This document shows positions 6,664 through 34,633 of a stretch of 40,786 nt of DNA, in pieces. The notes beneath the pieces are model-generated. The model made no database searches and was not told the origin of the DNA. It worked only from the letters and a program-made list of their open reading frames with translations. Positions within the stretch are counted from its first letter, which is position 1, and each line of letters begins with the position of its first letter. Origin of the DNA: Candidatus Thorarchaeota archaeon (GTDB taxonomy: Archaea; Asgardarchaeota; Thorarchaeia; Thorarchaeales; Thorarchaeaceae); NCBI GenBank assembly GCA_016840855.1, contig JAEORO010000061.1, positions 1 through 40,786 on the forward strand. Direction: 5' to 3'. The translations under genes and the position numbers were made by a program.

Positions 6664-8382
6664 ATGCCAAAGGAATCTCTAGAAAAAGAACTCGAACATA
6701 TCCTTAGAGAGGACTTGCTTGTTGCATGTCAATATTGGTCGATTGATGTAACAGGAAAGGATAGTGGATCTTCTTTGATCAAGATGCTTGCTGAGAAGAT
6801 GAAAATGCCAGAAGAAAGGACACGAGTCTTTGCAACCTTTTCTCCACTCGAGCGCGACCTTCTTGGAATATTAACTCTTAGTGGAGGTGCTATGAGCTAT
6901 GACAGACTTAAACCTTTTAGAAAAATATATAGCTATGGCCAGCTAAATCAAACTGAAAGAGACCTTAGAAAGAAAGGTATAATCATCAGACGAATGATGT
7001 CACGTTTGACTGAATTCGGAAGGGAAGTTGCTGAATTCAAAGTATTAGATTTCTTCATCCCGCATCTGAGAGACCTTTTTGAATCAAAGCCAGAACCTAC
7101 ACCAGAGGAACCAAAGAGGGCAAAGAATATCGAAAATGAACGAGATTCCCTACTCATAGATATGCTCCTTCTTGTGTCGTACCTAGCTAAGAAAGAAGTC
7201 CATTTAACAAGTGCCTGGGAATTTCCAAGGAGAGAGATTGATAATATCAAGGCATCAATGTCTAAATCTACTGATGAGCGTTTTGAGTTAGTACAAAAGA
7301 TGGCTCGGAAGATGGGAGCCTACGTTGTGGGAGAAGGAGATAGGGTTCAACCATCTAAGGTTGATCTACTCTTTGCAGGGGGATACCATAATGTTGCTCG
7401 TCGACTCCTGTTATCTCAGCTTGGTAGAACAAGAGCTATTTGGGCTACACCGGACCAACCTACAGAATACACCCTCAACTTGGCGATTTGTAGACTTAGA
7501 GAGAGTTCACCTGATGACTGGGTAAGTGTAGAAGAACTAAGAGATTGGATAAGGAGTGAGTTATTCATAGAGAAGCAGGAGTTGAAATGGATTCAGGTTG
7601 ATGATGACAGGGTTCAACTCTCACTTGAAACACCAATTCTCTTAGGATTAGTTGACGCAGCTTACAGAGGGAAAAAGCTCCTTGCAGTTAGACTAACAGA
7701 TGTAGGAGATATTGTGCTCAAAGGAATACCGCATGATAAAACACTGGGAAGAGACTCGTTCTTTGTTTTGCCTAACTTCGAAGTCACTGTCTTTAGTACA
7801 GAAATGGAGTACCATAAAATGTATCGTCTCATGTTGATCACAGAACCGGTTAAAACAGATGTAGTGAGTACATTCAAAATTACAGACAAATCCGTTTTCG
7901 ATGCAATAGAGATAGGTCTGCGTGAAGATGATATACTTGGCTTCCTTGAAAAGGAGAGCAGTAAACCTATTCCACAGAATGTCGTTAGATCAATAACTGA
8001 TTGGACATCACAGACTACATTTACAACAATAGCGGATGTCACACTCTTTGAGACCCAAAACGAACAAGACCTTGAAGATTTGATGTTGATACCAGATTTC
8101 ACAAGACAGATCGTTAGAAAAGTGGGGCCCACAGCAGTGATAGTATCTGGTAACATCGAGGAACTAAGTGCCAATCTTCGAAAGCATAAGTGCATGGTGC
8201 GACGAAAAACCAAAGATGAAGAAATTGACTCTTCGAAAGATTCCTCTGTTGCAGAACAATTCTTGCTCTATGGTGAAGATCAGGGAGTTGAGGATGTTCC
8301 CAATCAATGTGAGGGGTGTCCTGCAGTTCCATCATGTAATAAAGTCATTCGAAGACGGAGTCAGACAAAAAGGGGGGGGTGA
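6664..8382 (+). CDS. XPB-partner 'helicase-associated domain' protein (Helicase_C_3 domain; p52/Tfb2-like)
   Basis: C-terminal VLPNFEV...VSTFKITDKSVFDAIEIGLREDDILGFLEKESSKPIPQNVVRSITDW is the Helicase_C_3 signature, also seen in the XPB N-terminus; N-terminal helical/wHTH-like segments. ORF extends to ATG 6628; 6664 preferred given TTAAATA at 6605. Confidence 0.8.
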   Translation: MPKESLEKELEHILREDLLVACQYWSIDVTGKDSGSSLIKMLAEKMKMPEERTRVFATFSPLERDLLGILTLSGGAMSYDRLKPFRKIYSYGQLNQTERDLRKKGIIIRRMMSRLTEFGREVAEFKVLDFFIPHLRDLFESKPEPTPEEPKRAKNIENERDSLLIDMLLLVSYLAKKEVHLTSAWEFPRREIDNIKASMSKSTDERFELVQKMARKMGAYVVGEGDRVQPSKVDLLFAGGYHNVARRLLLSQLGRTRAIWATPDQPTEYTLNLAICRLRESSPDDWVSVEELRDWIRSELFIEKQELKWIQVDDDRVQLSLETPILLGLVDAAYRGKKLLAVRLTDVGDIVLKGIPHDKTLGRDSFFVLPNFEVTVFSTEMEYHKMYRLMLITEPVKTDVVSTFKITDKSVFDAIEIGLREDDILGFLEKESSKPIPQNVVRSITDWTSQTTFTTIADVTLFETQNEQDLEDLMLIPDFTRQIVRKVGPTAVIVSGNIEELSANLRKHKCMVRRKTKDEEIDSSKDSSVAEQFLLYGEDQGVEDVPNQCEGCPAVPSCNKVIRRRSQTKRGG

Positions 8383-9416
8383 ACCTGGATAGTCTCTTAC
8401 CCAAGGAATTGGCAGGTCATTTCTTTGGTGTAGGGAGCCTTGGAGAAAAGGACCCCGTAGTGCCTTTAGATTATGTGAAGAAACTCAAACTTCCTTATGC
8501 CTATAGTATACCTGCAAGACAAGAGGAAGATATGATAAGGCAATTTGCAGTTTTAGTGGAAGACTTTGAACAGCTAGGAACTTTCATTCTTGATGTGGAC
8601 ATTCACAGCTATCGAGAAATGACAAGCACTGATGAACCCCTCATGTTTGACAAAGAGCATGGACATAGTTCCTATCTCATGATAGATGGCTCCAGCTACT
8701 CATTCTTCAAGACGCAACAAACAGCACCAGCTACAATGTGTTTTAGTATCAGAGATAGTAATGGAAAGCAACATGTTACAAGAAATATGTTTTATTTTTT
8801 CCAGAAACTTATGATAAGAATAGCAAGAGGACAGGTTGAACACTTTAGACACGCTTGTGATAATCTAATACTTTGTCAAGATGATCCAGGATTAGGACAT
8901 GTGTTTGAAGCGATTATACAAGGAAAAGTGCTGGGACTGAGTCTAAATGAGATTGTTCAAAAAACTGATGACATCTATCCGGATTCGGTAATTCCTGCAT
9001 ATCATTATTGTGATGACTGGCGTCAACTTGTACTCGATGGGTGGTATCCACTCTGGGAGGGTAAACCAAAGTTGGTCCATATCGACGTGATTCGATATCT
9101 CCCAGAGATTGGAGAAGAACAGGCTGAGAAGATCAATTTGTTCATGAAACAAGGAGGAGGTCTTGCGCTCGGAGCGCTGCCTAATACGGATGACTCATAC
9201 TCTAAGCCAATCCTTGAAACGCTTCAATTCAATCTCTCTCAAAGTTTTCACTGCTTAAAGGATAGTGGTGTCGATTTGGGACTTTTGAAAAGGAACGCCA
9301 TGGTTTCAACTCAATGTGGTCTTTCAGGAGCAAGCCCAGAATTGTCAAGAAGAATTCATGAGGAGAGCTCTAAATTCAAAGAGATGTTTCTTCAAACTAT
9401 TGAATCCTCGACCTAG
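8379..9416 (+). CDS. Cobalamin-independent methionine synthase catalytic-core-like (URO-D/CIMS) protein
   Basis: GVGSL N-terminal motif, LCQDDPGL (cf. QxDEP), HYC and STQCGLSGAS putative Zn ligands; single barrel length; GTGA overlap with upstream gene. Confidence 0.65.
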   Translation: MNLDSLLPKELAGHFFGVGSLGEKDPVVPLDYVKKLKLPYAYSIPARQEEDMIRQFAVLVEDFEQLGTFILDVDIHSYREMTSTDEPLMFDKEHGHSSYLMIDGSSYSFFKTQQTAPATMCFSIRDSNGKQHVTRNMFYFFQKLMIRIARGQVEHFRHACDNLILCQDDPGLGHVFEAIIQGKVLGLSLNEIVQKTDDIYPDSVIPAYHYCDDWRQLVLDGWYPLWEGKPKLVHIDVIRYLPEIGEEQAEKINLFMKQGGGLALGALPNTDDSYSKPILETLQFNLSQSFHCLKDSGVDLGLLKRNAMVSTQCGLSGASPELSRRIHEESSKFKEMFLQTIESST

Positions 9417-9439: not shown

Positions 9440-10288
9440 TTAGAATGGCCAAGGTGTTATTCTTGGAGGGATATGCGGCTGAATGAATCCAGGGAACCAG
9501 ATGTTCATCATAGGCAATAACGGAGTGAGTAAAACTGCGGCTGTAAACAGCAGAGCAAAGGTTAGCGTGTGGACTGAAGTTACATACGTGTAATATGGTC
9601 GAATGTATGAGTAGAATGCAAAAGCTGGAATCGATAGAGCAACCATCGCCATTATCTCAACAGAATCAAAGAAGAAAGGCATTGACATCGGCCAGAGAAA
9701 ATAGAAAATCCAAGTGATTTTCTCGCTTGATGTTTCATGATGTGCAATCTTATGAATACCATCCACGCCCTGTGCTAGGAAGAAAACTGGAATGAGGAGC
9801 CACCACTGGAGACCAACAAAAAACATTGGACCGGCATAGAAGAGAAGGTCACCTGCACTTTCAATTCGCTCCCAAAATGGATTCCTGCTGATAAATTCAG
9901 TCATCTCTGTCATATAGTATCCGAGCATTTGAAATGCAACTAGAATAGGCAATAGGACAAATGAAAATATGATCATAATCACTGCAGCTTTGGGGAGTTC
10001 GTTAATCTTACCTTCATGATAGTTATCTAATGGATAGATACCATGTAGAGTAAAAGCTGCAATGAATACCAACAACCCACTTGGAAGAAAATACAATGGC
10101 TGGAAGATATATTGGAAAATTCCAAACCCTTGATATACGTTCCCAACCAGAGGACTGAATGAAGAGTCCAAAATTGGAAGGAAATACCAAACTCCAAAAA
10201 CCACCAAGAGCTCAGGAATTAGCATCTTGAGCCTATAGTCTTGGATGAACTTCATTAATGCACTAGGTTCTGTGGCTTGTTCTCCCAT
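9440..10288 (-). CDS. Polytopic membrane protein (about 7-8 TM), unknown function
   Basis: Multiple long hydrophobic segments; GGTGA SD before ATG. Confidence 0.75.
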   Translation of the reverse strand: MGEQATEPSALMKFIQDYRLKMLIPELLVVFGVWYFLPILDSSFSPLVGNVYQGFGIFQYIFQPLYFLPSGLLVFIAAFTLHGIYPLDNYHEGKINELPKAAVIMIIFSFVLLPILVAFQMLGYYMTEMTEFISRNPFWERIESAGDLLFYAGPMFFVGLQWWLLIPVFFLAQGVDGIHKIAHHETSSEKITWIFYFLWPMSMPFFFDSVEIMAMVALSIPAFAFYSYIRPYYTYVTSVHTLTFALLFTAAVLLTPLLPMMNIWFPGFIQPHIPPRITPWPF

Positions 10289-10306: not shown

Positions 10307-10600
10307 TTAGTTGAAAGTTGGTTTTCGTGAAGCCAAGTCGTCGTCTTCCTCACGAAGCTTGTGTTGGAATGGTCTTCCCTGACTATAGATATCTGGGTCC
10401 ATATCCTTGGTCTTGTTCATAATTGTGAAGAATCCACCAACTTGAATGATAATGGATACAATTGATATTAGGAAAACATCAGGAAAGTACTCATGAGAAA
10501 AGAGCTGAAAAAACCAAACAGTCGGGTATAGTACCACTTGGATTAGGATTCCAAGTATCAGTGCCAAAACCCATTTGTTTGTCCAATTTGATAAAGTCAT
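10307..10600 (-). CDS. Small 2-TM membrane protein
   Basis: Two hydrophobic helices then a charged tail; co-oriented in the operon; start uncertain (10600/10594; ORF to 10627). Confidence 0.65.
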   Translation of the reverse strand: MTLSNWTNKWVLALILGILIQVVLYPTVWFFQLFSHEYFPDVFLISIVSIIIQVGGFFTIMNKTKDMDPDIYSQGRPFQHKLREEDDDLASRKPTFN

Positions 10601-10675: not shown

Positions 10676-11641
10676 CTACTCACCTACATACTTGTCCTCT
10701 AATTCGGTAACTAGGAGTCTTGCTAGGTTTCTGAAGTCGCTCATTGAGATATGGGGGACACTACTTGTTCGTTCAGGAATATTGAAACGAGCAACAATCA
10801 CCATGACATCCTTATCCATTGAGTATTCTAGAAGAGCAGGATATTTGGTGCCTATTCGAAATCCATCTTCATGAGGTTTCACTCGTCCGCCTTTGTAAAT
10901 GGTTCCAACCAAATATGGATATGCAAAACCACTGTGTGAAACCTGGACTTGGATTTGGACTGTTTCAGGAAGATTCTGGACGTACGCTTTCACTTCAGAA
11001 TCGAGAAGGGTCTGCACTCCACCTCGTACTCCAAGCTCTACGTTCATTCCTGCCCTGACTCCAGGTACAAGTGCTAGTTCGCGAGCAAAATTATAAACAT
11101 CTCCTTTCAACGGTCGTTTGAAGAATTCTTGGGCATCAATTGACGGTATTCTGAAACCCAAGACGAACCCAACGACTGAAACAATGCTGTTTTCAAGAGT
11201 GATGAACAGAATGGGATCTAGGTTTGGACTGAGAAGAACTGTGTTCCATGTCTGGGATAGTAGAATTAGACCACCAAGAATTAGGATAAAGAGGAGGGAG
11301 CAAAAACAACTCATCCAGTCACCCGGGTGTGAAAAGAACTCTCCATACGCATCCTCATACTCCTCAACCATATTCTCATAATCACCAAAACTTACCCATG
11401 TCTTTTTCTTCTCCCATTTACCAGGGATATAATCGATAGCCTTCTTCGAACCGCCACCAAATGTTAATGAAATAAGGAAAAGAACTGCAGGCATTCCCAC
11501 AAACACTGCAAGCTTGTAGAAGCTGTTAGGGTTCATATAGTTTACAACAATTCCAACGGCTGTGTACAGAACCGCGAAAATAACAAATGCTCGGTTCACA
11601 CTTCCTTGTCGACTATAATCAATGATTGTTTCTTCATTCAA
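10676..11641 (-). CDS. 4-TM membrane protein with C-terminal soluble domain (paralog C)
   Basis: 2+2 TM arrangement; shares motifs with the two upstream genes; TTG start. Confidence 0.8.
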   Translation of the reverse strand: MNEETIIDYSRQGSVNRAFVIFAVLYTAVGIVVNYMNPNSFYKLAVFVGMPAVLFLISLTFGGGSKKAIDYIPGKWEKKKTWVSFGDYENMVEEYEDAYGEFFSHPGDWMSCFCSLLFILILGGLILLSQTWNTVLLSPNLDPILFITLENSIVSVVGFVLGFRIPSIDAQEFFKRPLKGDVYNFARELALVPGVRAGMNVELGVRGGVQTLLDSEVKAYVQNLPETVQIQVQVSHSGFAYPYLVGTIYKGGRVKPHEDGFRIGTKYPALLEYSMDKDVMVIVARFNIPERTSSVPHISMSDFRNLARLLVTELEDKYVGE

Positions 11642-11687
11642 TCCAAACTATCCCTCATCAAATTCAAAGCTTGGGTAGTGATAAGCT

Positions 11688-12635
11688 CTACGATAATTTA
11701 TGATTGTGAGCGTTATCTTGACGTTTCAAATAGTATGCTACCTCTTCAAGGACCTCATTTAAGATTTCATCCGCACCCTTTGAGGAGATATATGTCTGAA
11801 GGGTTTTGTGGACTATTTGTGTAAGCTTTTTGAGAGATGGCACTCCAACATGTTCATCGATCACACGAGATCCATCAGAATCATCTAGAGTGATTGTTGC
11901 TAAAGTTTTCTGAGGATGACCAGATTCATCCAGGACACACTTTATCTTTGAAACACTCTCTATACCTTCAATTCGAGAAATTGGACATACATCGCGAATC
12001 GTGTAGTACCCTCCAGATTCGCCTAGTAACAAATTTACTCCACTCCATGAGATGCCAGGAGTCTTTTCCATTAATTCAATCCATGGGCGCAAGATCCCAC
12101 CAGAAACAATTGGAAAATAAGAAGTAGCTTCATTCGGAATAAGCTTGAACATTATTGATGAACATATGAGACCAAACATGAGAACAAGGAAACCAAAAAT
12201 AAGTGGAGAAGCAGCGATTAGAAAGATGTTCGCCCTCATTAGTGGAAAAGGAATGGCTATAGCTATTGCTGATAGAAGAATTGCTAGAAAAATTTGGTAG
12301 TAATCCACAATTGAGAGAAAACTCCGATATTGACTTCGATACTGCTTCATCATAGCTTCATATTCGGATAAGGACACATCTCTCTCTCTGAAACTCCATT
12401 CGGGCTCGCTAAATCTTATCCGAGTCTTCATTCTCCATGCAACTACTGTGATACAGGGAATAATACTGACTAGAGCAAACATAGCCCACGCAATCCATGC
12501 AAATGGCGTTTCATACAACGGAAGTAGCTGCACTTGAGCAATCTCAAAACTCATGAAAGACCATATAATGAGAATTATGAAAATCAGAATTTGGTAACTT
12601 AGAAGTGATCCAGTTGTAACGGGACCTTCATCCAA
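11688..12635 (-). CDS. 4-TM membrane protein with C-terminal soluble domain (paralog B)
   Basis: 2+2 TM; EPEW...VSLSEYEAMMKQY and EKTPGISW..V...GESGGY motifs; TTG start 2 nt after the upstream stop. Confidence 0.8.
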   Translation of the reverse strand: MDEGPVTTGSLLSYQILIFIILIIWSFMSFEIAQVQLLPLYETPFAWIAWAMFALVSIIPCITVVAWRMKTRIRFSEPEWSFRERDVSLSEYEAMMKQYRSQYRSFLSIVDYYQIFLAILLSAIAIAIPFPLMRANIFLIAASPLIFGFLVLMFGLICSSIMFKLIPNEATSYFPIVSGGILRPWIELMEKTPGISWSGVNLLLGESGGYYTIRDVCPISRIEGIESVSKIKCVLDESGHPQKTLATITLDDSDGSRVIDEHVGVPSLKKLTQIVHKTLQTYISSKGADEILNEVLEEVAYYLKRQDNAHNHKLS

Positions 12636-12637
12636 TT

Positions 12638-13651
12638 TTATCCCTCTGAATAGTTGACCTCAAGCGATTTCAGAATATCGAAAAGTTGTTCGTTCTTACC
12701 CCGAGTCTTTATCCACTCAAGGATAACGATAGCCACTGCATTTTGAAAAACTGCGGAAATGTCCTTCACGCCTGGATGTTTCACCTTGGATTCTACTGGT
12801 AGTCTAACATAGTATCCTTTTTCATCTGTGCCTATGAATTTCCTAAAATTACGATCTGTTGATACCCACCACCAAACAACTTGTGGATTGTTTTCGTATT
12901 CGTGAAGTCTGCAGAGTACGCGATTAACAGCATGAAGTTCTTCTGACCATGATTCGATATATGCATCCTTTTCAATTCCAGAGATTCGGGAAACTACCCT
13001 TGGACTCTCATATATCTCATAGCCATCTACTTCGCCTTTATCAAATACTACACGAATATAGGATAATCCCGGTACTTTTTCTTGAGATTTAGCTAAGGTA
13101 ATTGCTTCTCTTGCTAATAGAATGTCAAAATCAACAGATGCCTCATTTGATGCTGCAAGTAATGCACCGATTGATGCTACAATATATACTACTGAGAGTG
13201 CAAGCGCAAAGATCCAAACTTCAAGTCCACCCAAATTTGGACTTTCAATGAAGACAAAAACAGGTAAGCCGGCCATGAACAAGAGGAGCCCAATAGGGAT
13301 AAAGAACGTCCAGTAGCTACTCATCGACACTAATCGCCAGTATTTGCGGTTGTGAGTCTTGACAAGGGTTTTCGCATCATCAATTGTCATCTGAACAGGC
13401 TTTAGAGTCCAAGTGGGATCTGTGTACATAATTGCGGACTTCTTTCCATACCACCCAATATAGAATCCAAGAGCTGTGACTATTACCGGAAGGCAAATGA
13501 AAAATAACAGAATCGATCCCCAATCCCAGGTTGATGAAGGGAGGTATAGGTCTGCGACAAAGTAGCCTATAACGAATAGCAGAAGTGTACCAAGAAATAT
13601 GGATGCATAAATCTTTGTCAAAGACTTGTAGGTAATGATGCGCTCTGCCAT
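12638..13651 (-). CDS. 4-TM membrane protein with C-terminal soluble domain (paralog A)
   Basis: 2+2 TM; DPTW...MTIDDAKTLVKTH and EKVPGLSY..V...GEVDGY motifs; GGAG SD. Confidence 0.8.
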   Translation of the reverse strand: MAERIITYKSLTKIYASIFLGTLLLFVIGYFVADLYLPSSTWDWGSILLFFICLPVIVTALGFYIGWYGKKSAIMYTDPTWTLKPVQMTIDDAKTLVKTHNRKYWRLVSMSSYWTFFIPIGLLLFMAGLPVFVFIESPNLGGLEVWIFALALSVVYIVASIGALLAASNEASVDFDILLAREAITLAKSQEKVPGLSYIRVVFDKGEVDGYEIYESPRVVSRISGIEKDAYIESWSEELHAVNRVLCRLHEYENNPQVVWWWVSTDRNFRKFIGTDEKGYYVRLPVESKVKHPGVKDISAVFQNAVAIVILEWIKTRGKNEQLFDILKSLEVNYSEG

Positions 13652-13795
13652 CTTGACTCCGCCTAGAACAATTGGCTCTTTGTCATTTGCTCTTTAAGGA
13701 TTGCTGATGATTCAGGTGACATGCAAATATTTATAACACGAACCCCAATTGATGTATTAATTATTGTTAATTTTTCACAAGGAGATGAGAATTCA

Positions 13796-14278
13796 TTGAT
13801 TAAAATAGGTGACAAAGCACCAGATTTTACTACAACAACAGAAAGTGGGGAAAAATTCAAGCTAAGCAGTTACAAGGGAAAGAAAGTCTTTCTATACTTC
13901 TACCCAAAGGACAATACTCCTGGTTGTCAAGCTGAAGCGTGTTCTATTCGTGATAATTATCATGTATTTGAAAAATCAGACGTCCCCGTCTTTGGTGTTA
14001 GTGGTGGAACAGAGAAATCACATAAAAGCTTCAAAGAGAAGAACAATCTGCCATTCCCCCTACTTATGGATGAGGAATTTAAGATTGCCAAGCTATATGA
14101 TGTATACAAAAAGAAGAGCATGTATGGCAAAGAGTACATGGGTATTGAACGAACAACTTTCCTCATAGATGAGAAAGGAAAAATTGAGGGAATCTTTGGT
14201 GGCCCAGAAGGAATCGAGAAGGTCAAGACCAAGGACCATGCGGACCAGGTCATCAAGTTCTGGAACCTCAAGCTGTAG
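13796..14278 (+). CDS. bcp: Peroxiredoxin, BCP/PrxQ family
   Basis: IGDKAPDF, YFYPKDNTPGCQAEAC (PxxxTxxCxxxxC), ERTTFLID; probable TTG start at 13796 after GGAGA SD (ORF extends to 13721). Confidence 0.93.
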   Translation: MIKIGDKAPDFTTTTESGEKFKLSSYKGKKVFLYFYPKDNTPGCQAEACSIRDNYHVFEKSDVPVFGVSGGTEKSHKSFKEKNNLPFPLLMDEEFKIAKLYDVYKKKSMYGKEYMGIERTTFLIDEKGKIEGIFGGPEGIEKVKTKDHADQVIKFWNLKL

Positions 14279-14289
14279 AGGAATCTGCA

Positions 14290-14763
14290 ATGTTGGAGGT
14301 AGGCGACGAAGCTCCAGACTTCGAAACAGAAGACGACACAGGTAAGAAGTTCAAACTGAGTGACTTTAAAGGACAAAAACTAGTCCTCTATTTCTATCCT
14401 AAAGACTTCACACCCGGATGCACAGCAGAAGCTTGTTCGATTCGAGATAGCTATCAGCTCTTTGAAGGATCAGGAATACCTATTTTTGGAATCTCAGGTG
14501 GTTCAGCTGGGTTACATCGAAAGTTTAGAGAGAAGTATGAACTGCCTTTCAACATCCTAATGGATGAGGATCTTAGCATTGCAAGACTCTATGATGCCTA
14601 TAGTAGATTGGACATCCTTGGAATGGGAGTGAAACGGATTACATACTTAGTTGGTGAAGATGGTAAGATAGAAGCTATCTTTGGCGGTTCAGAAGGGTTA
14701 GAGAAAGTCAAATCAAGTCAACATGCAGATCAAATTGCAAACTATTGGGGTTTAAAGCTATAG
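14290..14763 (+). CDS. bcp: Peroxiredoxin, BCP/PrxQ family (tandem paralog)
   Basis: VGDEAPDF, YFYPKDFTPGCTAEAC, KRITYLV. Confidence 0.93.
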   Translation: MLEVGDEAPDFETEDDTGKKFKLSDFKGQKLVLYFYPKDFTPGCTAEACSIRDSYQLFEGSGIPIFGISGGSAGLHRKFREKYELPFNILMDEDLSIARLYDAYSRLDILGMGVKRITYLVGEDGKIEAIFGGSEGLEKVKSSQHADQIANYWGLKL

Positions 14764-22159: not shown

Positions 22160-25100
22160 CTACTCTTTCTTTCCTTCTAGGCTTTTAACAAGTTCATCGA
22201 CAAGGTCACGAGGTAACGCTTTTGCTTGTTCAATAATTGTTTCGATCTCATGCGGAGGCACCCCTTTTTGTTCAAGATCTCTTCGTAGCTCTTCAATTTC
22301 GTAGAGAGTCATTTTATCTTGCTCTATTTCCGGAGTTTCGTCAACTGGCTTTTCATGCTCAGGAGTGATGATCTCCTTGTGAACTACTTCATCTTTTTCT
22401 TCCTCTTCAAGAAAGACTCTCTCTTCATCTTCAGGCTCAATAGCTTCAACGGGTTCTTCCTTTTCCTCGCCTCCGAGCCGTCTTAGAGCTTCTTGTTGAA
22501 TATTCGCAAGGGTTTCTTCTATTGTCTTCCCTTCGCGACGAGCTGAACGGATTGCCTCTTGCATTATGACCTCTTTCACGAACGCTGCCTGCTCACTCAT
22601 CTTCATCTTTTTGATATCAGCTTGGAACTCATCAAGTTCCTCAGCACTTAGATGAGTGAGGATTGCTAGTTGCATGAGGAGTTCGCCCATTTCTGGAACC
22701 TCAATAGGTATGGCTTCTTCAGGCATTTGCGCTGCTGTTCGTGTAATCTTTAATTCCTCGAAGGTATCGTTAAAGAGCTCCGCAGTAAGCTGTTGTCTGC
22801 TTTTTACACCACTGACTGGTTTTGGTACCTTACCCTTCTTGAGAGATTTCAGCTGACCATTTATTTGACGAATTCTCTTTGGGACACTCCAAATTTTCAC
22901 ATAGGCTCCTAGCAATACGATGATGAATATGCTAATTGGTAGACCATAAAATGTGATGTTTATCAATAGCTTATCGAAATCATTGGCCTGTGGACGTATT
23001 TCAAAATTGATTATAGCGTCTTCATGAAATGCCAGACTCATTACTATTCTAATAGAAGAGAAGTCTCCATAACCTACAGCTCGAATTACTATTCGATAAT
23101 AACCATTTCCTAGAGACGAGTTGCTGCTAATGATAGCTGTTGTACCAGATTCAATGGTAAATGAAGCACCAGCAACACCCCAACCATGCCACGTGTCATT
23201 AAGATAGAAATCAAACGTTAAAGTTTCTCCATTAATCATTGTGTAGACTAGTTCAGTATCAATTACCTCACCTTCGTGAAGTATTTCTGTTGGCGTTTGA
23301 ATGAGTTTGATATTGAAATATACAACTTGGAGCTGCCGATGGTCATCAAAGATACCGATTTCAAATTGGAAGTATTTTCCTTCTATTATGATTGGTCCGG
23401 TATGACGGTCATATAATGATGCATTACTTGTATCAAATGTGAAATTATAGTAACCAAATCCTTGTTGAAAGACGATTGGCATAGTGCCTATGAAGTAATC
23501 ATTAGCTCTCATTTCGGTGTAATCGGTGAAGTTTGCATTAGTGATTCCACCAAATAATCCTCCCACTGTACTAATATCATTATAGAGTAGTGAGATGTCA
23601 ATTGTATCGCCCATTGGAAGTTGGAGGTAGTATATTCCTTGTTCAAATGATATAAAGTTCTGATCAGGAAAATCAACAATCAACTCAGTAGGTCGCTCCT
23701 CAACTCGAATATAGAAACTAAACGAACGTTCCTCATAATTGAGTAGGAAGAATGCAGTTGTTATTCGTTCACGCACATTGGAATCCAGTATGGTTGTATC
23801 GATAAAGAGGGAATATGTTCCATTTCCTAGGTCTGTTGCATTAAAATCAAGGTTACCATAGTTGTAAGTTACTAATGCGCCAGATACATATCTCGAGTTA
23901 TAGTCATCTGAGAAATTAAGTGAGATATATCCAGTCCAACCCCAATCTAATTCGATAATTTCAGTGGGTCCTTCGATGCTTGTTGGAATCTTCTTTATTG
24001 TTAAAGTCATGCTAGTTAAGGTATTGGCTAGAGTGGTATTAGTTGGGTATCCATAGAACGAAACTCCCACCGTACCAAATCCAAGGATAGAGGTATTGAA
24101 TGTGAGAGTCCAGATACCACCGCCAATCGATGTGAAGTTTAGATAAATGTCACGTGTTGAATCGATCCAACTAACATTGGCATCATCAATTAGCATACTA
24201 ATTGCATTAGCAGTGAAATTAAGCTGCAATGTGACATTCTGGAGATAATAGACCTCAAGTTTTGTCGGGTCTGGAATACCAATGACTTTAAGCTGCGTTG
24301 CGGTTTGTCGAATATAAATCTTGAATTGATTAACTGCTGGATCATAGTTTCTGAAACTAGCAAAAATCTGTATATCATAAGATAACAGTGCTTCTAGAAT
24401 AGTTGCGTTTCCTGGTATCGTAACATCCCATCGCCCTGAGAAAACATCATAGGACATATAATATTTCAATCCTTCCAGCATTGCGTAAACTTGGAGATAT
24501 CCAGACGCATTTCGAACTTGAGTGCTATCGATTGAAATGCTATCGGTGATGTCCCAAAGTTCGATTTCAATATAGACAGGGTCGCCCCTGTTTACCGGAG
24601 TTACTGTTTCTGTTGGATCATAGAGTATTATTTCACTTGGGAGAGTCATTACTACTAATGTTATGGTTGTAAGTGCTACTGTGTACTTGTCTTTCATTGC
24701 TGTAACTGTAATAACATATGTTCCGGCACCAAATCCAGTTGTATCTATAATTGTAGTATATCGACCTGTTGACCCAAACTCAACCAGTGGTCCACTATCA
24801 ATTGTAATCCCAGACACCTTGTATTCCCAGATAACACTCAACGCACTTGAGATTGACACATCATTAAGTAGATCTCGGTATTCCACCCAAACATCAGCAC
24901 CACTCTTCCAGTCTACTGTGACAGATGTTTCATCAGGTGTTAGAACTGTATTGATTGCGATCACATTGAATTGTGGTGTTACAGTCACTGATGCATACAC
25001 AGAAACAGCTGCAACAATTCTTAGTGTGTAAGGTCCTAGAGTTGTCAAATCTGAAGTGCTGAAACTAATGTTGTAGATACCTGATGAACCATACTCGTAG

Positions 25101-28100
25101 ACAACCAAGCTTGCAGGTGTTGTTCCACTAACGAGGTATTTTATGTTTGATGCGAGTATTGCAGAATATCCAGTAACTGGAAGTACATGGTCCAAATCAC
25201 TCCAAGTCACATTAAGCGAAACAGTGCCCGTATATTGGACTGATGATGGAACCAACGCATTGACCTGAAGTGATGTCCTAACTAAGTCAACTAAGCCAGT
25301 CAAAGTTACAACGGAACGATTTGAATAGAATGGTGGGAGACTAGGATTCCATTGCACCTCAATATCAAATAGAAATGTTCCAGTACCAATCAATGAGAGA
25401 GTATCAACATTGAACACATATATTCCAAGCCCTTCACTTGTAGTGTAGTCAATACCTTCCTGCAAGAAATGACCTTGGCAGCTGAATAGAATTATTGCAC
25501 CTTCAATAGGATTGCCAGTATCAAGGTCAGAAAGGTTGATTGTTATGTCTAGAACATCGCCTTTTGGTGTACGCTCGATTTGATCTGTTTCAACAAGAAT
25601 GGAGCGACCTGTTATTGTTATCTTGACAATCGTGTAATCATCACCATAGAACGGGTCTTGCGCAACAGGCCAATCCACAGCTACTCGAATCGATAACCCT
25701 GTTACAGGAATTGTAGTAAGCACTATCGATGAGATGGTAAGCTCGTAAGTGCCACTAGTTTCAATAATGCTATAATCAAGTTGATTAATTTCAGTCATGT
25801 TGGGCCAATATAGATGAATGATTGTTAGATCAGCAAGTGAAATGGATGTACCTGCGTCGAGATCATTGAACTCAAACTCGAAACTAACATCATCCAAAAA
25901 CAACGTCTGTGATGGAGGGACTGTCACTTCCAAATTAGTAGCTCTTGTTCTAACAAGTACAGAAACATCTCGTGAAGCATCATTATGATAAGGCGCTCCG
26001 GTCCAATCAGCCTGGATGTTCAGTACATGCGTGCCAGGGTTAGCTACGGAGGTTGTAAAGAATGTTACTTCATAATATCCTGGACTTCCTTCAGAAACTA
26101 CATAATCAGAAAATTCTGTGAATCCTGAAATCAAGATTACAGCACCTGCAATACCCAACCCATTAGCATCCTCATCGCTAAAGTAGACAGTGAATATCAC
26201 ATTATCAAGATAGGGAGTTGTTTCCGGTTCAGTAATGAGAGCAAGGGAAGATAATCTACTTCTTACCTTGAAGGTCACCTGTGTTTCTTTTTGAGCATAG
26301 AATGGCGCCTGAGGCGCATAACTCATTTGTATTGTGAATGTATGTGAAGTTCCAGGAAGCCAGGTTGCATCCCAACTCGGGTTCCATGAGATATTCAGGA
26401 GATAATTCTGCTCAACAGGTCTCCAAGTTGAAGTAAATGTCTGACCAAGCACCTCCACCGTCACAGGATAGCCGTGTGCAGCATCATTGGCAATTGGGAC
26501 TGAAGTGAATAAATCAACGTAACTAACGACAATTATGATAGGAGAGCCAAATGGTACATTAGCCACTGGGTTCGCAGCAACAATAGTAGCTCTTTCAAGA
26601 ACTGTAAAAAGCCTGTCGAGGAATTTTGGAACAACATAGTAAAACACTCCAATAGACATCTCAACTCTCAAAGTATCAGTACCTGGACCCATAGCATAAG
26701 TTGTATTCAATGTCACCTGGTATATGCCTGGTGAAATCTCAACATAGGTATATTTACCTGAGTCAATTGGCGTTGCACCTTCCTTCAACACAAGTGTAGC
26801 CGCAGTAATTGGAATAGAAGCACCTTCTGTTGTATCAGTCCAAGTCACATTGAAAATTACAAGGTCACCATACTGCGTGGGCGGTGGAGTAAGATATTCC
26901 AGTGTTGTAATTCGTTCTTTGACACTGATGTAGGTAATACGACCAGTTCTGTTTGCATAGAATGGAGAACCACTCCATGTCACATCAATGAGAATCGCTT
27001 TGATTCCTAAACTACCAAACTGTCCTGTATCGACTGTGATTGTGAAAGTCCCACCACTTTCGACATATGAGAAGGAAACATTCATTGATATTGTCAGTTT
27101 AGGATCATCGTTGATGAGCATACCACTAGTAATGTCTTCGAATCTGAGTGTGAATTCTGCATCCTCGTTGTAACTCGTCGATGGTGCAGGTGTGATTGAA
27201 AGAAGCGTGTTCCTTGGTAAAACTCTGATTGAAATTACATCTGTTCGGTTAGAGTAGAAGGGTGAAACACCTTTAGACCAATTGACGAAGACATTCATGT
27301 AGATTATGCCAGTCCGACTAAAGATACTCGTGTTAAACTCGACAGAATACTTCCCAGCTTCTGTTGATGAAAAGTCAGCGATTATGATATCAGATGGGTC
27401 GACGGTTTGATCTTGGAAACTGACATAGATGAAGACATTTCCGGTGAGATTATCGATTCCGATGCCACTGAACAGGTCACTATAGAAGAAGATGTATCCC
27501 ATGTCTTCATTATATGGAGTAGGCTCAGAACCTAGGAGAAGAGTAAGAGCAGACTCTCTGCCTACGACATTCGCAGATGTAACAAATGACTTGTCTTTAT
27601 ACTTAGCAACTACTCCAGTCCAGTCCGCATATACCGTGAATGTTTGAAGTCCAAGTCCGAATTGCCATGCAGGGACTTGAATTATATAGAATCCATCTCC
27701 AAGAACTAAGTCATAATCATAACTTGAAATAACAGGACCTGATAGATTGGATACTGAAAATATGACCAACGCAGACTTGATACCAACTGCATTATCTAGG
27801 TCCCCGTAATATACTGAAATATTGAATGTACCAATGGTGCTGGTAGGTTCAATTGAACTCACAATCCTAAAGTCTGTGTTATGAGTCCTAATTGTTACAG
27901 TAATCGAAAATTGCACTGTCTGATAGTTTTCTTTAAGGAACGTGAATGTGTAGACTTGATTCTGAGCTATAGTATCAGAGTCAGAGGTTCGAAATGTTAT
28001 CCTGTATTCTTGATTCAATGGCACGTAGACAACTGAGAAGTTGCCCCAAGTTGAAATGACTTGGGTATATGGGGATGTCAGATTATCGATTGGCAGAATC

Positions 28101-31100
28101 CGATCAAGGTCGGTGTAATCAACCGTGAAAACAACTGAATTTCCAATCGGTATATCCAAAGATCCAACTGATGGTGTAACCGATGTGTAAGCATCACGGA
28201 TGACAATTCTGAATTGCAGTGTTTTTGCATCATATCCCGATTTATATGCAGTGAGACTTATGTAATGAGTGCCTTTTGCTAGGGTAGAAACATCAATCCA
28301 AACACTGTAGACTCCACCTGTTTCGTCAGTTGAGTTAGCAATCCACGCTTGATGGTCTGGTGATGTAATTGTTGCACCTTCAATACCAGTTCCAAAATCA
28401 GCATCTGCATATTCGAGAATAATCTCTACATCTAATTGGTAGGGAGTTGTGACTTGAGGATAGTTGGGAGATGAGAGATAGCTAACAATTGGTCGATATG
28501 AGAACTGGATGATGAGATGAGCGTTGCTATATTCACTATCCCATGAGGTGAAGTAGACAGTAATTTCGTAACTACCCCCAGGTGATAATTGACCCCAGTC
28601 AATAGTCAGTTTATATAACCCAACTGCATTCTGAGATGTGTCAAGGGATATTGTGTAACCTGGAACGGAGAACTCTCCTGCGGCACGTCCAATGATGGGG
28701 TTTCCATAGTATTGCCCGGCTTCACTTATATTGAGATGAAGATCAACGACAAAGTCAGAACCAATTGTGAAGTTGAATGCTGATGGACCTGTGTACAGAG
28801 TTGAGATCATGCTTCGTATTGTAACTGTAAATTGATAGCTTGATGGAGCACTGTAGATGGTCCCACTCATTGCTACATTTACAGTCACCGTCCAAGACCC
28901 AACATCCCATGTGCTTGTGTCCAGAATGATAGCATAGCTTCCAAAATTGTCTGTGCCAAAGTTGTGTTGAAGTTGAATATTTGAAACTGAACCAATGGGT
29001 ACGGGTAGACCTGTTTCAAGATCTGTAAGGACAATTGTCAACTCAGTCTGATTGCCATATGGTTTTGTTATGGCACCTGTTACAGTCAAAGATGTTTTGT
29101 GAGCAAGTATTTGAATTGTGAAAAGGTATGGCGTAGGAGCTTGGATTTTAATATTAGACATTACGATGTTCAAAGTTGCAGTGACTGACCCCACATTCCA
29201 ATCAGCAGTCGTTAGGGTTGCAGAGTAGGTTCCAAATACATCTGAAAGATAACCGCCAGTGTAACTGAAAGTTAGTGTGCTCACATCAGAGATACCTACC
29301 TCAGACTCCGTGTCCAAATCAAATAAGAAGACATTGACCTGTGTATCGTTTCCATAAGGTGTTGTCATATCACCGGTGACGGTGACAGCAGTTCGATGAG
29401 CTCGAAGGGTGAATGTTACGTCGACTTGAGCTTCATGAAGGTATGCTCCAGATTTGGTTGCATTGAAAACGTATTGATGATTTCCAAGACTAAGGGAATT
29501 GGTTGGAATTGCTATGTCATAGGTGCCATCACCGTTGTCGGTGACATATTCAACTGGACTACCATCATCGTATGTGATCGTCGCACCTTGAATTGGTGCA
29601 CTTGTATATTGATCTCTAAATATCAGAGTCGCTGTGAAATTAAAGTCAGCAGGAGTGGTTGTAATGCCAGATGCTTGCAGTCTGGTGCTATGATACAGGT
29701 CTATGTCGAAATACTCTGTTGCATTATTATAGTACTGGTGATAGGACCAGACATTGATATGCCATTGTTTGTTATCACCAAGACTCGTTGTAGATAGCAC
29801 CTTTCCATATAGACCACCACCATAGTCATTCAAAGTGATTGTGGAGGGAGTGGTCCAGTTCATTTTGACAGTGGCACCTGTAACTCCCTGAGTGGTGATA
29901 TCATCAGTAAGCTCATACTCAATTATGAGTGAATCACCAGCAGTCTTCACTGATAGTCGGTCGCCAACAGCATCGAGTGGTTCGTTAAGTGTCAAAGTTG
30001 TAGGGTGACGTACGATGAACGTCCTCTCAAAGAGACCAGTCTTATTTGAAACTGAATTACCTGTGTCATTATAATATGCTACAGCCGTCCATTGACCAGC
30101 GGGTGCGGTAGAGTCAAATTGAGTTTCGAGAGTATGATCAGTAGAGGCTCGTTGTTGTTCAGTGCCACGACTAAGAAATGTCCCTGTGTTTAGTTGGTTT
30201 TGAGCCTCGGTTCTGAGCCATTCAAAGTCCCGGAAGGTGTTTGAGACTCGGAACTCATCAAGGGATCCTGGAAAATAGCCAGTACCGTAAATACCTGAAT
30301 CATACTCTCCACCTCCTAATCGCCATTCTTCAACGTATGATACATTAACATAGGTTGTTGAGAGTAGTTGATCAGTGCTTGCCCATCCGTTGTTCACCCA
30401 AATAGCATTATTTTCAGGTGCATCCTCATCAACATAACAAGCAATGAAAAACCATACATTTGCCGCCCATGATGTAATTGTGGAAGTCCATGTGTAGGCA
30501 GCCCCTTCCGATGAACTCTCGACCTTGAATACGAGTGACCCAGGAGCTACTGATCCACCATAATTTGTTCCTGCTAACGCTATAGCCATGTTATGCGTCA
30601 TATCTGCATACTTTTCCATGATTACTCTTGTATTAGGCGAGGTAGAACTATGAGAAGAAGAAAGTCTGAACCAGCCAGATATCAACACATCATTATTAGG
30701 AGTGAGTGTTTCGTCTATTGATATATAATCACCAATACCATCAAATGTTTGGCCATAACCAGCCCTTGCAAGTTGGGCTGTTTGCTCATTTCCATTGCGA
30801 ACACCATTATAGTTGTTACCTGATGAGTCATAATGGGTAGGGCCAGAAATAACAGACTCTCCTAGATGCCAGACAGCTTCAAAGTCATTAGACCATACTC
30901 CTGATGGATTCTCTAGATTATCAACTACAGGAGACCCATAGTACATCGTAATGTAGTTGTCAACTCCTGCTGTTAAATTCGTCTTGACCCATGCGACAAG
31001 AAGTGCGGTGTTGACTGGATAGTTTTGCTGGAAATTTTCAATCTCATGGTCTAGAATCGTGTCGCCTGATGCAAACAGGATATCTGATGCATCAGAACGA

Positions 31101-34100
31101 ACCTTACTTGGATTATGTAGATCAGTATCTGTGAATTGTACCAAAACTGGAAAATTAACAACAGTACCATAAATCTGAGAAGACGGAATTGTTATTACCT
31201 TACGATATCTGAATGATGGAAACTTATGAGCTGTAGATGCACTTGTCTGATTAAATGAGGAATACCATGTGTCTCCATTTGGTTTAAGAAGATCGAGACC
31301 AGCTCGGGCACCGTAAATCGTAGGTGTTGTAATTGTGAATTTGGCTGCTTCATCAATGTCAAAAGCCGTATTATTAATTTGAAGGTCTTGTAGGAAGTTC
31401 CAGCTTATGAACTTGAGAGTCCAGACACCCCAGAAATCAATCGATGCCGGGTTAAGCGTCAATGTTCCTCCTTGATACCACCAATCAGAACCTAGTGCTT
31501 TTGGTTTATCAAGGGGATTGAGAACCTTAGTAGCTTTCCACTCTGCTCTTGGATATTCCACAGAGAATCCAAGTGATGTTGCCCCAGCAGGAGGCGAAAC
31601 CATTACCTTTGCTGTCCAGTTGACGATATTTGAACCACTCTTAATGAAATAGCTGACACCATTATCGAAGTTTTCATCCATTGTTTCAACTATGCCGCCA
31701 ATGTCCATTACTAGATTGACATTTAATGTAACTATTCCAGCGGATGAAGTTGTGAAGACAACCTGAGTTTCGCCAGCTTCAACCCATGTGTCAGGAATTG
31801 TTTCTTCAGCACCAACAGAATAGAAGGCAGCTGTATTGTCTTGATTGTTGTACTCTGTTTCTATCCACTCTGGAGAAAGAATAGCATTAGAAACTCGGAT
31901 CTCATCGAACATCCCTAGAAACCGACTTGCTGCATCAAGCTGATGTCCGCCCCAGAGCCAAGTTCCAAGAGAGGCAAGTTGCGTCCACTGTGCTGGTACA
32001 TTTTCTATCGTTAGAACTAATGGCGCGCCATCAAGGTATATCACAACAGATTTGGTTGAATAGTCTAATGTCACTACTAGATGCTGCCATATGCTGTTCG
32101 TGAATGGATTTGTCGCCAGGTTATAATCAGAGCCACTTCCACCCCAAGGATAGAAGAAGTTATCACCATCAGGTTGTACTGCAAATTCAAAGCCATCAGT
32201 TTGGAGAAGTGTGGGAGGTGGAGTAGGATTCAATGCGAAGCGATCGCTTGTTGTCAGGATACGTTGGTATCCCCCATCCGAAGAATCCAACCAATTAATC
32301 CAAAGCGATATAGTACCCCCAGATTTTACTGAATCCAAACTTGGACTCTCAAGAACATTAATCATGTCATCAATCCCATCTAAATCGAATCCACTACCAA
32401 TATGACCTGTGACCAAATCTGAACTGCTCATGCTTCCCAAAGTTGTACCATGATTATTGTATTGGCTGCTATCATACACTGGTCCCGTTGGACTTTCATC
32501 TAAATGCCATACACCAACATAATCATCCCACACCGTTGCCCTTCCTACAAGCTCTGCTTCTGGATTTCCATACGCCATGGTGATGACAGTGTCAATTGAG
32601 CTTGACAAAAGAGGCACCTTCACCCATGCCACAAGATGCGCCTCTGTTGGACTATAATCTTGGTCAAAGAGCTCGATCTCATGGGCTAGAGGTGTTCCAT
32701 CAATTGTGAAAATAATATCGTTTCCATTTGCTTGTACATGATCTTTCAAATCAGAATCGACTAAATCAATTAGGACCGGAAAATCTGTTAGATCTGCAAC
32801 TACGCTAGTGTGGTCAATTGTGATGTCCTTTTGATACTCAAAGAAAAGAATGTTATCTTCGGGTTCCGGAAGTACATATTCAACAAATAAACGCGCTCTA
32901 TCTTCACCGGAGAAACCAGCTGTACCCTTTATACCATTCCAACGTGTATTGGATGTACCTGAATACATGTGCGTCAACATGAAACAGATATAGTTCCCTG
33001 TGGACCATCCAGACCTGCTTATTACACTCTGCACGAGTGGACCTATCTCTGGTGATCTATATCGAGTGTCAAAACTTGTTTCCCAAGAAGTGAAACTCCA
33101 ATCTATGCTTGTTTCAACCCAACTTTTAATCCAGTCCTCAAGATGGGTTCCATTTGCCCATGAATATGGCACACTGAAAGATTGTACAGTATCTTGATCT
33201 GCAACATAAACCCTCATTCCTAAAAGATATGGACTCGAGCTGTCAATAGCTTCCACTTCAACATAGGCGGAAGTGATGATTGCTCCTTGGGGGATATCCA
33301 ATGGAAACTGCATTCCCGTTTCGAAAAGACTTCCAGCAAGGAATGACCCATATATGCCAGTATCAAGTTCACCGATAGGCCCACCATCGTATCCATCAAG
33401 ATCAATACCGTTGAAGCCATCTAGAAAATCGCTATTGTCGTCGTAACAATCTCTACCATCATCGTCAGGCACATATGGATAAACACTATGTGTTGTAGAG
33501 CCCCAAACAATTGTGCCATTCGCCTTCAGGTCAACCTGTTCAGGAAATGGTCGAACTGTGAGATCCAATTGGACATCATCAATGTACGCATATGCATTGG
33601 ATGCTGATGTTTGAGTTACACTTTCATCCGTAGCAAGTCCAATATCAAAAAGGAGAGTATGAGTCGAGAGACCAGTCATCGAGGAAGCTGGTATGGTAAG
33701 TGGACTAGTCGTTAACCATGTGTCAGTCGTATCGCCTGACTCAAACACATGATATTTGTATGTGTATCCTGCAAGTCTGACGAAGATGTGTACTTTGTCG
33801 TTCATAGTGGAACTTGAACTTACCCGGTATCGAAAACTGATTTGAGCGGAATAGAGCTCTCGATAGGGCATTGACACCATTTGACCAATGTAAATCTCAT
33901 CATTAGGATTAGCATCATAACTAGTAGTCAGTTGTGCTTCAAGGTATACTCCCCAGGTCCCTCCAATCCCATTGGGATCGCTATCCAATTCGTAGAAACC
34001 ATGCTGTGGATGTTTATTATCATCAATAACGTTCTTTATGACAGTCCAACCATCAGGTACATACACAGCATCATCATTTTGAGTTGTGTCAGTGGTAACT

Positions 34101-34483: not shown

Positions 34484-34633
34484 AGAACGGCCTCCTCTTA
34501 TACTGTCAACCAAAAGCCCATACAACACATGTCTGCATTCTCTCAAGTATGGACTCTGAGCAACAGTTCCAGTATACTCTAATGTATAAGAAGTTGTTCA
34601 GGAGATATTACATTCTGTAGAAAGAAAACTCCG

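Follow-up and report, generated by a model that had tools for sequence, protein, structure and literature searches.

A Thorarchaeaceae superfamily of tandem four-helix membrane proteins with predicted cytoplasmic domains

INTRODUCTION

No known organisms are more closely related to eukaryotes than the Asgard archaea, and most of the membrane proteins peculiar to their lineages have yet to be studied. Here, we describe three tandem genes, A, B, and C, and two partner genes, D and E, on contig JAEORO010000061.1 of a Candidatus Thorarchaeota archaeon (GenBank assembly GCA_016840855.1). We refer to the whole stretch of DNA that was analyzed, 40,786 nucleotides (nt) long, as the window. The features are listed in Table 1.

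Table 1. Genes and sequence features of the cluster in the window
Feature	Position (nt)	Strand	Remarks
TATA-like box TTATAAATATTT	13725..13736	-	~80 nt upstream of the A ATG; read by eye
Gene A	12638..13651	-	Open reading frame (ORF), 337 amino acids (aa)
Gene A, four-transmembrane (TM) anchor	13154-13618	-	Residues 12-166
Gene A, predicted cytoplasmic C-domain	12641-13153	-	Residues 167-337
Gene B	11688..12635	-	ORF, 315 aa; closest paralogue of A
Gene B, TM region	12144-12602	-	
Gene B, C-domain	11691-12143	-	
Gene C	10676..11641	-	ORF, 321 aa
Gene C, TM region	11150-11614	-	
Gene C, C-domain	10679-11149	-	
Gene D	10307..10600	-	97 aa from the ATG at 10600; ORF listing begins at TTG 10627
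Gene E	9440..10288	-	282 aa; orphan histidine-rich polytopic membrane protein

RESULTS

Three paralogous genes in tandem

An earlier note, made from the sequence alone, had described A, B, and C as three co-oriented genes for proteins of 315-337 aa that share a layout of two TM helices, a loop, two further TM helices, and a soluble domain. The coordinates and lengths proved exact, all three ORFs being on the minus strand. Kyte-Doolittle hydropathy placed four TM segments in each of the three proteins, and AlphaFold2 models of A and C reproduced the layout. The six motifs it had quoted are all present letter for letter in the translations. The loop between TM2 and TM3 is basic and 43-44 residues long in all three proteins, and the C-terminal domain (C-domain) comprises 151-171 residues. 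Gene B begins with a TTG codon 2 nt past the stop codon of A, and one B homologue in our collection (P0121) is identical over 315/315 residues with the same start.

The mutual homology that the note had proposed to check by profile alignment was significant for all pairs. By hhalign, A and B aligned at a probability of 99.5% (E 2.7e-22, 297 columns), B and C at 97.0% (E 9e-11, 170 columns), and A and C at 96.9% (E 1.3e-10, 220 columns). BLASTP gave E 1e-14 for A and B (25% identity over 274 columns), E 2e-6 for B and C, and E 0.025 for A and C. The loop and "PG" motifs fell in register by hhalign in all three pairs, and BLASTP returned the same register for A-B and B-C. Because the A-C and B-C alignments end about halfway into the soluble domain, the distal half of the C protein's domain is unalignable to A or B. 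These alignments show that the three genes are true paralogues of common descent. C is the most diverged of the three, yet the best conserved within its own group.

To define the orthologue groups, we collected 122 homologues for A, 40 for B, and 210 for C. Greedy thinning of the full-length sequences at 72% identity kept 28 of 114 for A, 21 of 33 for B, and 10 of 117 for C, and the C set was additionally given the window protein and nine hand-chosen sequences. The resulting alignments are A2, A3, and A4 for the A, B, and C groups, and A1 joins 60 sequences from all three. Mean column identity within the groups was 55% for A, 57% for B, and 68% for C. The three are thus each conserved separately, which indicates real genes under selection. 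The genome from which the window comes (3.36 Mb, 92% complete) holds these three copies only.

Structure models, topology, and conservation

AlphaFold2 models, each built from its own alignment, reached a predicted local distance difference test score of 93.3 and a predicted template modeling score of 0.86 for A, and 86.1 and 0.73 for C. Both run through the same order of elements: a short N-terminal strand, TM1 and TM2, a beta-hairpin and an amphipathic helix, TM3 and TM4, and an alpha/beta C-domain that starts with a helix, continues with six or seven strands in a row, and closes with one or two helices at the C-terminus. In A, the TM helices pair at residues ~12-36/44-73 and 113-136/143-166, and the pairs in C lie at equivalent places. 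The outer loops measure 3-9 residues and contain a mean of 0.0-0.1 lysines and arginines vs. 5.2-7.6 in the TM2-TM3 loop in all three families. Under the positive-inside rule, this distribution places both termini, the TM2-TM3 loop, and the C-domain in the cytoplasm. We have good confidence in the predicted architecture and topology, in which a four-TM anchor carries a cytoplasmic C-domain and almost nothing would lie outside the cell.

Column identity in C was 0.82 in the loop, 0.79 in the C-domain, and 0.50-0.72 in the TM helices. The corresponding values for A were 0.62, 0.67, and 0.49-0.62, with TM3 equal to the loop, and conservation in B was even throughout. Five columns are invariant in all 60 sequences (P55, K70, W81, F175, and G195), and four of these lie at or past the cytoplasmic edge of the membrane. 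The invariant TM residues of A and B are proline, glycine, leucine, and aromatic residues, none of them charged. C additionally has an invariant Ser58 and an invariant Asp142, the latter at the outer end of TM4.

In its modeled shape, the C-domain of C resembles type III secretion class I chaperones and YbjN proteins, a likeness in which we have moderate confidence. It shows the fold elements of their clan, CL0097, namely a helix, an antiparallel strand meander, and a C-terminal helix within ~110-150 residues. For A, wide structure searches yielded almost nothing but generic helical bundles, and no chaperone. Because the helical bundle fills these searches, we make the chaperone-fold assignment for C only. 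A complex prediction for A, B, and C from their own alignments, with C as the partner and without controls, scored 0.00, which is neutral on binding.

Distribution of the superfamily

Searching 1.84 billion cluster representatives with the A1 profile returned 117 proteins at E≤0.001, 82 of them at ≤1e-30. Three sub-profiles assigned 34 of the 117 clusters to A, 60 to B, and 23 to C without any ambiguity; the smallest margin was 42 bits, so that no fourth type appears. Every homologue with a source name is a "hypothetical protein," and the sources are Thorarchaeota, Sifarchaeia, or "Promethearchaeota" metagenome-assembled genomes (MAGs), with single Odinarchaeota and Thermoplasmata labels. The C profile matched 66 of the 85 genomes of the GTDB family to which the window belongs and, weakly, 1 of the 314 other Asgard genomes searched. 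The A profile matched 76 of 86 family genomes (G000 included), among them 23/23 of high quality, and all 16 genera. The taxonomic survey that the earlier note had suggested therefore finds a superfamily almost confined to one GTDB family of Thorarchaeia within the Asgard archaea. With A present in every high-quality family genome, the superfamily is probably part of the core cell biology of the group.

Gene order around the paralogues

Scanning species genomes with the C alignment gave 55 loci, all in MAGs, labeled Thorarchaeota (42), Promethearchaeota (7), Hermodarchaeota (1), or, for the remainder, "uncultured archaeon." We scored six-frame ORFs of these loci with our profiles and counted the 37 loci with at least 2.1 kb upstream and at least 1.4 kb downstream of C; because the loci were retrieved with C, these counts are biased toward its presence. 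The order A-B-C-D with E adjoining D was found in 34/37, with E co-oriented in 14 of them and reversed in the other 20. The three exceptions were two broken or partial copies in one closed MAG and a single A-C-D-E locus lacking B.

Outside these counts, the C search found nothing in genera g5, g6, and g8 and matched two of seven genomes in g9. At the A loci of six genomes from these four genera, the order was A-B-D without C in 6/6; five have E beside D, and the sixth contig stops within D. At least two different paralogues precede D in every full locus except L035, an extra C-D-E copy, which fits subunits that do not replace each other. The one sister-family genome available has D and E in the same syntenic place and no A, B, or C. 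The earlier note had supposed that the trio was kept as an operon and had proposed synteny as a check. The operon-like order does recur in relatives, but the trio is not a fixed unit, given the loci that lack C and the one that lacks B.

In the window, A and B are spaced by only 2 nt, which suggests coupled translation, and the gaps that follow are 46 nt (B-C), 75 nt (C-D), and 18 nt (D-E). Shine-Dalgarno-like GGAG/GGTGA sequences precede A and E, with the GGAG 7 nt before the A ATG, and GAGGGA precedes C. The TATA-like box upstream of A is a possible operon promoter, judging from its sequence and position.

The broken cluster belongs to the closed MAG G368 (L034, L035, and L075). There, gene B is split: its N-terminal half accompanies A at 1.577 Mb, and its C-terminal half accompanies C-D-E at 0.69 Mb. 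An additional C copy (residues 49-321) with D-E lies at 1.06 Mb. This could be either a rearrangement with duplication or a misassembly.

Two conserved partner genes

The partners D and E lie outside the range that the earlier note covered and were absent from it. Gene D always follows the paralogues and was recovered by tblastn in 51/55 loci. Taking the start codon nearest to the match, its orthologues begin 5-19 residues inside the TTG-initiated ORF of the window, mostly 9-10. The protein has two TM helices with invariant Q21 and Q53, an invariant histidine in the outer loop, and an invariant tail, IYGQGRPF(Q/K/R)HKLREED..A.RKPT. This tail is invariant wherever A and B are present and is intact in the five C-less loci that reach it, the sixth contig ending inside the motif. 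In the sister-family genome without A, B, and C, the tail reads ...IYSRGRPPKEPKVE, and the distal part of the motif is absent. We also considered D as a half-length paralogue of A, B, or C and rejected this at an hhalign probability of 13.6%.

Gene E adjoins D always, on either strand, and was found in 77/85 family genomes and in one sister-family genome. It is more conserved than A, B, or C, with a mean column identity of 69% (alignment A6) and 67-94% identity across 21 aligned sequences. Its invariant residues include H82, H179, H183, H184, H240, D88, and D176 as well as glutamate, and its motifs are LHGIYPLDNYHEGK and DGIHKIAHHE. These residues look like a candidate metal site of a membrane enzyme. 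E had no match in Pfam or the PDB, and an Atlas search returned nothing at ≥0.8.

History of the paralogues and stand-alone C-type copies

A maximum-likelihood tree of 41 selected rows (11 A, 11 B, 16 C-type, and 3 extra) separated an (A,B) clade (support 100/99; A 97/93, B 99/99) from a C-type clade (100/99); in this tree, long branches meet and the root is a midpoint only. Besides the cluster-borne C proteins, the C-type clade contains several divergent lineages that stand alone, as well as two proteins, G123 and G127, from other Asgard families. One ancient triplication, as the earlier note had it, therefore does not describe this tree. Instead, our reading of the branching is that C-type and A/B-type probably split first, A/B then duplicated, and the set was assembled beside D in this GTDB family.

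The G123 and G127 copies are singletons (L059 195-4616 and L067 6352-10780), each between a 613-633-aa membrane protein and a PqqD-radical SAM-SPASM enzyme, in an identical three-gene order in both genomes. Enzymes of this type are a hallmark of peptide-modifying maturases. The L059 membrane protein has a weak, sub-threshold Gpi16 match (E 0.0034). A further divergent C-type paralogue (L060 468-1466; 106 bits to the C profile) occurs besides the normal cluster in its genome, alone and adjoining CoA-transferase and HAD hydrolase genes.

Searches against known families

The earlier note had recognized no family, and our library, PDB, and Foldseek searches likewise gave no significant match. In Pfam, nothing scored above the curated cut-off for the A, B, and C proteins of the window, and the best matches below it were scattered (DUF2607 at 12.3 bits against a cut-off of 24; SPC12 at 15.1 bits against 23.6). 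Scans of 60 and of 20 family members, in which matches were counted irrespective of the cut-offs, again gave scattered ones, with none recurring in more than 5/60. NCBIfam had no match for A, B, or C. PADLOC returned only Cmr5 at E 0.0075 and PHROGs none, and a defense-system or phage origin is thus without support from either. Sequence-profile searches of the PDB with alignments A1, A4, and A6 gave nothing below E 0.17, Foldseek with the A and C models gave no PDB match at E≤0.001 and, for C, no match among the BFVD viral models, and a protein Atlas search with C returned only its own Thorarchaeota clusters.

Two leads were followed and rejected. SPC12/SPCS1 (PF06645) matched C at 15.1-16.5 bits vs. 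the cut-off of 23.6, over residues 7-58 with a "DY..Q" motif, and matched 4/20 C members. Another ORF in the same genome scored higher, 13/14 control prokaryotes gave a signal below the cut-off, and we judged the lead to be hydrophobic noise. DUF2208 (PF09973), an archaeal predicted membrane protein, matched 1/60 members at E 0.073 and nothing in the genome of the window at E≤1. In the literature, we found no paper on paralogous hypothetical transmembrane proteins of Thorarchaeota, none that mentions any of four orthologue locus tags, and none that joins Asgard membrane proteins with type III secretion chaperones.

Other genes of the window

The neighboring genes have no common functional theme (two peroxiredoxins, malic enzyme, an RFC-like ATPase, a kinase-like protein, XPB, and a p52-like gene). 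Divergent from A lie the two tandem AhpC/TSA peroxiredoxin genes (13721-14763, plus strand); in the first, the Pfam match covers nothing before residue 29, so that translation probably begins at a codon downstream of the ATG given in the ORF listing. Convergent with E is an ORF of 345 aa (8379-9416, plus strand) that has no Pfam match and is conserved in 30/55 related loci. Two giant ORFs were also present, one of 4128 aa (22160-34546, minus strand) and one of at least 1983 aa (34836-40784, plus strand) that runs past the window end.

DISCUSSION

A proposed membrane-anchored cytoplasmic platform

We favor the reading, at a rough probability of 40%, that A, B, and C form a hetero-oligomeric, membrane-anchored cytoplasmic binding platform with an A/B core and C as an accessory. 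Within the membrane, the paralogues would lie next to one another; A and B would make up the core, which C would join in most genera. Pairing of their cytoplasmic domains would create a membrane-tethered platform that binds a partner protein or peptide, and the platform would serve the histidine-rich membrane protein E. The best candidate for a client would be the invariant cytoplasmic tail of D. Four observations favor this: selection on the cytoplasmic face, with TM helices that look like anchors; at least two non-redundant paralogues before D in all but one full locus; the closeness of A and B; and the resemblance of the C-domain of C to a dimeric, peptide-binding fold. The parts of the proposal differ in strength. 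We would give a hetero-oligomer of A, B, and C about even odds, the binding of a peptide or partner by the cytoplasmic domains is a more tentative suggestion, and the D tail as the client is a doubtful one.

Several findings weigh against this reading. Four genera do without C and one locus does without B, which excludes a fixed heterotrimer, and the stand-alone C-type copies have no A, B, D, or E nearby. Adjacency may also say little, because the order of the whole ~14-kb block from XPB (2381) to malic enzyme (16412) is kept in the family by tblastn, with the p52-like gene present in 24/24 long loci, and this general synteny may be the reason why the paralogues adjoin D and E. Moreover, E flips strand in more than half of the loci, and the contrast in the D tail comes from a single outgroup genome. 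The chaperone-like fold has no echo in sequence: CL0097 models matched A, B, and C nowhere at E up to 1, were not among the 25 of 53 families shown for the 60 members, and were absent from the 5 families listed for 20 C members (E up to 0.1). Finally, association among A, B, and C is itself inferred.

A bolder form of the proposal is a Thorarchaeaceae-specific membrane machine of A, B, often C, D, and E, which we regard as a long shot. In it, paralogous four-helix anchors arranged in a ring or row would hold domains like those of secretion chaperones against the inner membrane face, and these domains would clamp the D tail or other unfolded polypeptides and couple them to E, which would be a new histidine-rich membrane metalloprotein.

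Alternative explanations

The strongest alternative is that A, B, and C act independently. Each would form homo-oligomers or work alone, serving a partner of its own as an adaptor or sensor anchored in the membrane, and the tandem would simply record their origin by duplication. The C-type copies found alone elsewhere and outside the family, the absence of C in 6/6 loci of four genera and of B in one, and the weakness of adjacency in a broadly syntenic region all fit, as do the very different rates of the three groups (23 C, 34 A, and 60 B clusters at 50% identity). However, A and B were found together in all well-flanked clusters other than the single A-C-D-E locus and those of the MAG whose clusters are broken or duplicated, the 2-nt gap between them in the window suggests coupled translation, and no family genome was seen to keep just one type beside D. 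On balance, we consider independent action unlikely.

Less probable still is that the cytoplasmic domains bind a lipid or hydrophobic small molecule in a START/Bet v 1/lipocalin-like cup and exchange it with E as a metal-dependent lipid enzyme. Structure searches did return START/Bet v 1 (SRPBCC) matches, but these cover residues ~240-321 only and score below the chaperone-like ones, with Foldseek probabilities of ≤0.33. E has no Pfam or PDB match to a lipid enzyme and only one of the three canonical histidine boxes, and the neighborhood contains no genes for lipid synthesis.

The twelve TM helices of A, B, and C could instead line a heteromeric channel, transporter, or translocon, as the earlier note had suggested for a channel or translocon. 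This is very unlikely, given outer loops of 3-9 residues, A/B TM helices without an invariant charged residue, and, in A and C, a cytoplasmic loop and C-domain that are more conserved than the TM helices, except that TM3 of A equals the loop. A membrane-shaping scaffold of reticulon or tetraspan type, whose hairpins and amphipathic helix bend or organize the membrane, would suit proteins that are universal in the high-quality family genomes of an Asgard archaeon and that recall reticulon-homology domains, which have a comparable TM-TM/loop/TM-TM layout with an amphipathic helix, but it is the least credible of all because the helices of 23-27 residues are predicted to be ordinary spanning pairs with short outer loops rather than wedge hairpins, no reticulon-related Pfam match was found, conservation is strongest in the globular domain, and D and E are left unexplained.

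Significance

The novelty here lies in the family and its architecture, an unannotated, lineage-restricted superfamily with confident structure models, and not in a mechanism. No link to eukaryote-like features was found for the A/B/C family. If the favored platform does hold the D tail or other peptides at the membrane, a secretion-chaperone fold would gain a new role in a new domain of life, and there would be a handle on the very conserved E. If the bolder membrane machine were true, it would amount to a membrane-tethered class-I-chaperone system in an archaeon presumably without a type III injectisome, and would suggest that Asgard archaea have a new way of handling proteins or regulating enzymes at their cell membrane.

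Comparison with known systems

MotA/ExbB/TolQ-type subunits resemble A, B, and C in having several TM helices, a cytoplasmic mass, and a small membrane-protein neighbor, here D. We did not find the combination expected of such stators, an acidic residue in a TM helix of the partner together with an ExbB/MotA fold match. TtfA, the mycobacterial trehalose monomycolate transport factor A (PDB 6t84), gave a weak fold score and has no sequence relation to our proteins. It has a single N-terminal anchor, and its function in cell-envelope lipid export is without known counterpart here.

The closest likeness is to clan CL0097, whose members include SycT, SycN-YscB, SpcS, ExsC, and DR_1245. According to a 2026 review, class I chaperones are small acidic homodimers around which clients wrap as extended chains, and the clan also includes the YbjN proteins, which are widespread and poorly understood (PMC13466201). 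The domain in C differs from these proteins in several ways. There is no sequence similarity to any clan model, and the host is an archaeon in which a type III secretion system was not searched for. Members of the clan are small, soluble, acidic dimers, whereas here the domain is extended by strands from the N-terminus and the loop and forms the C-terminal part of a four-TM membrane protein. This pairing of a four-helix anchor with a chaperone-like domain is a combination that has not been described before.

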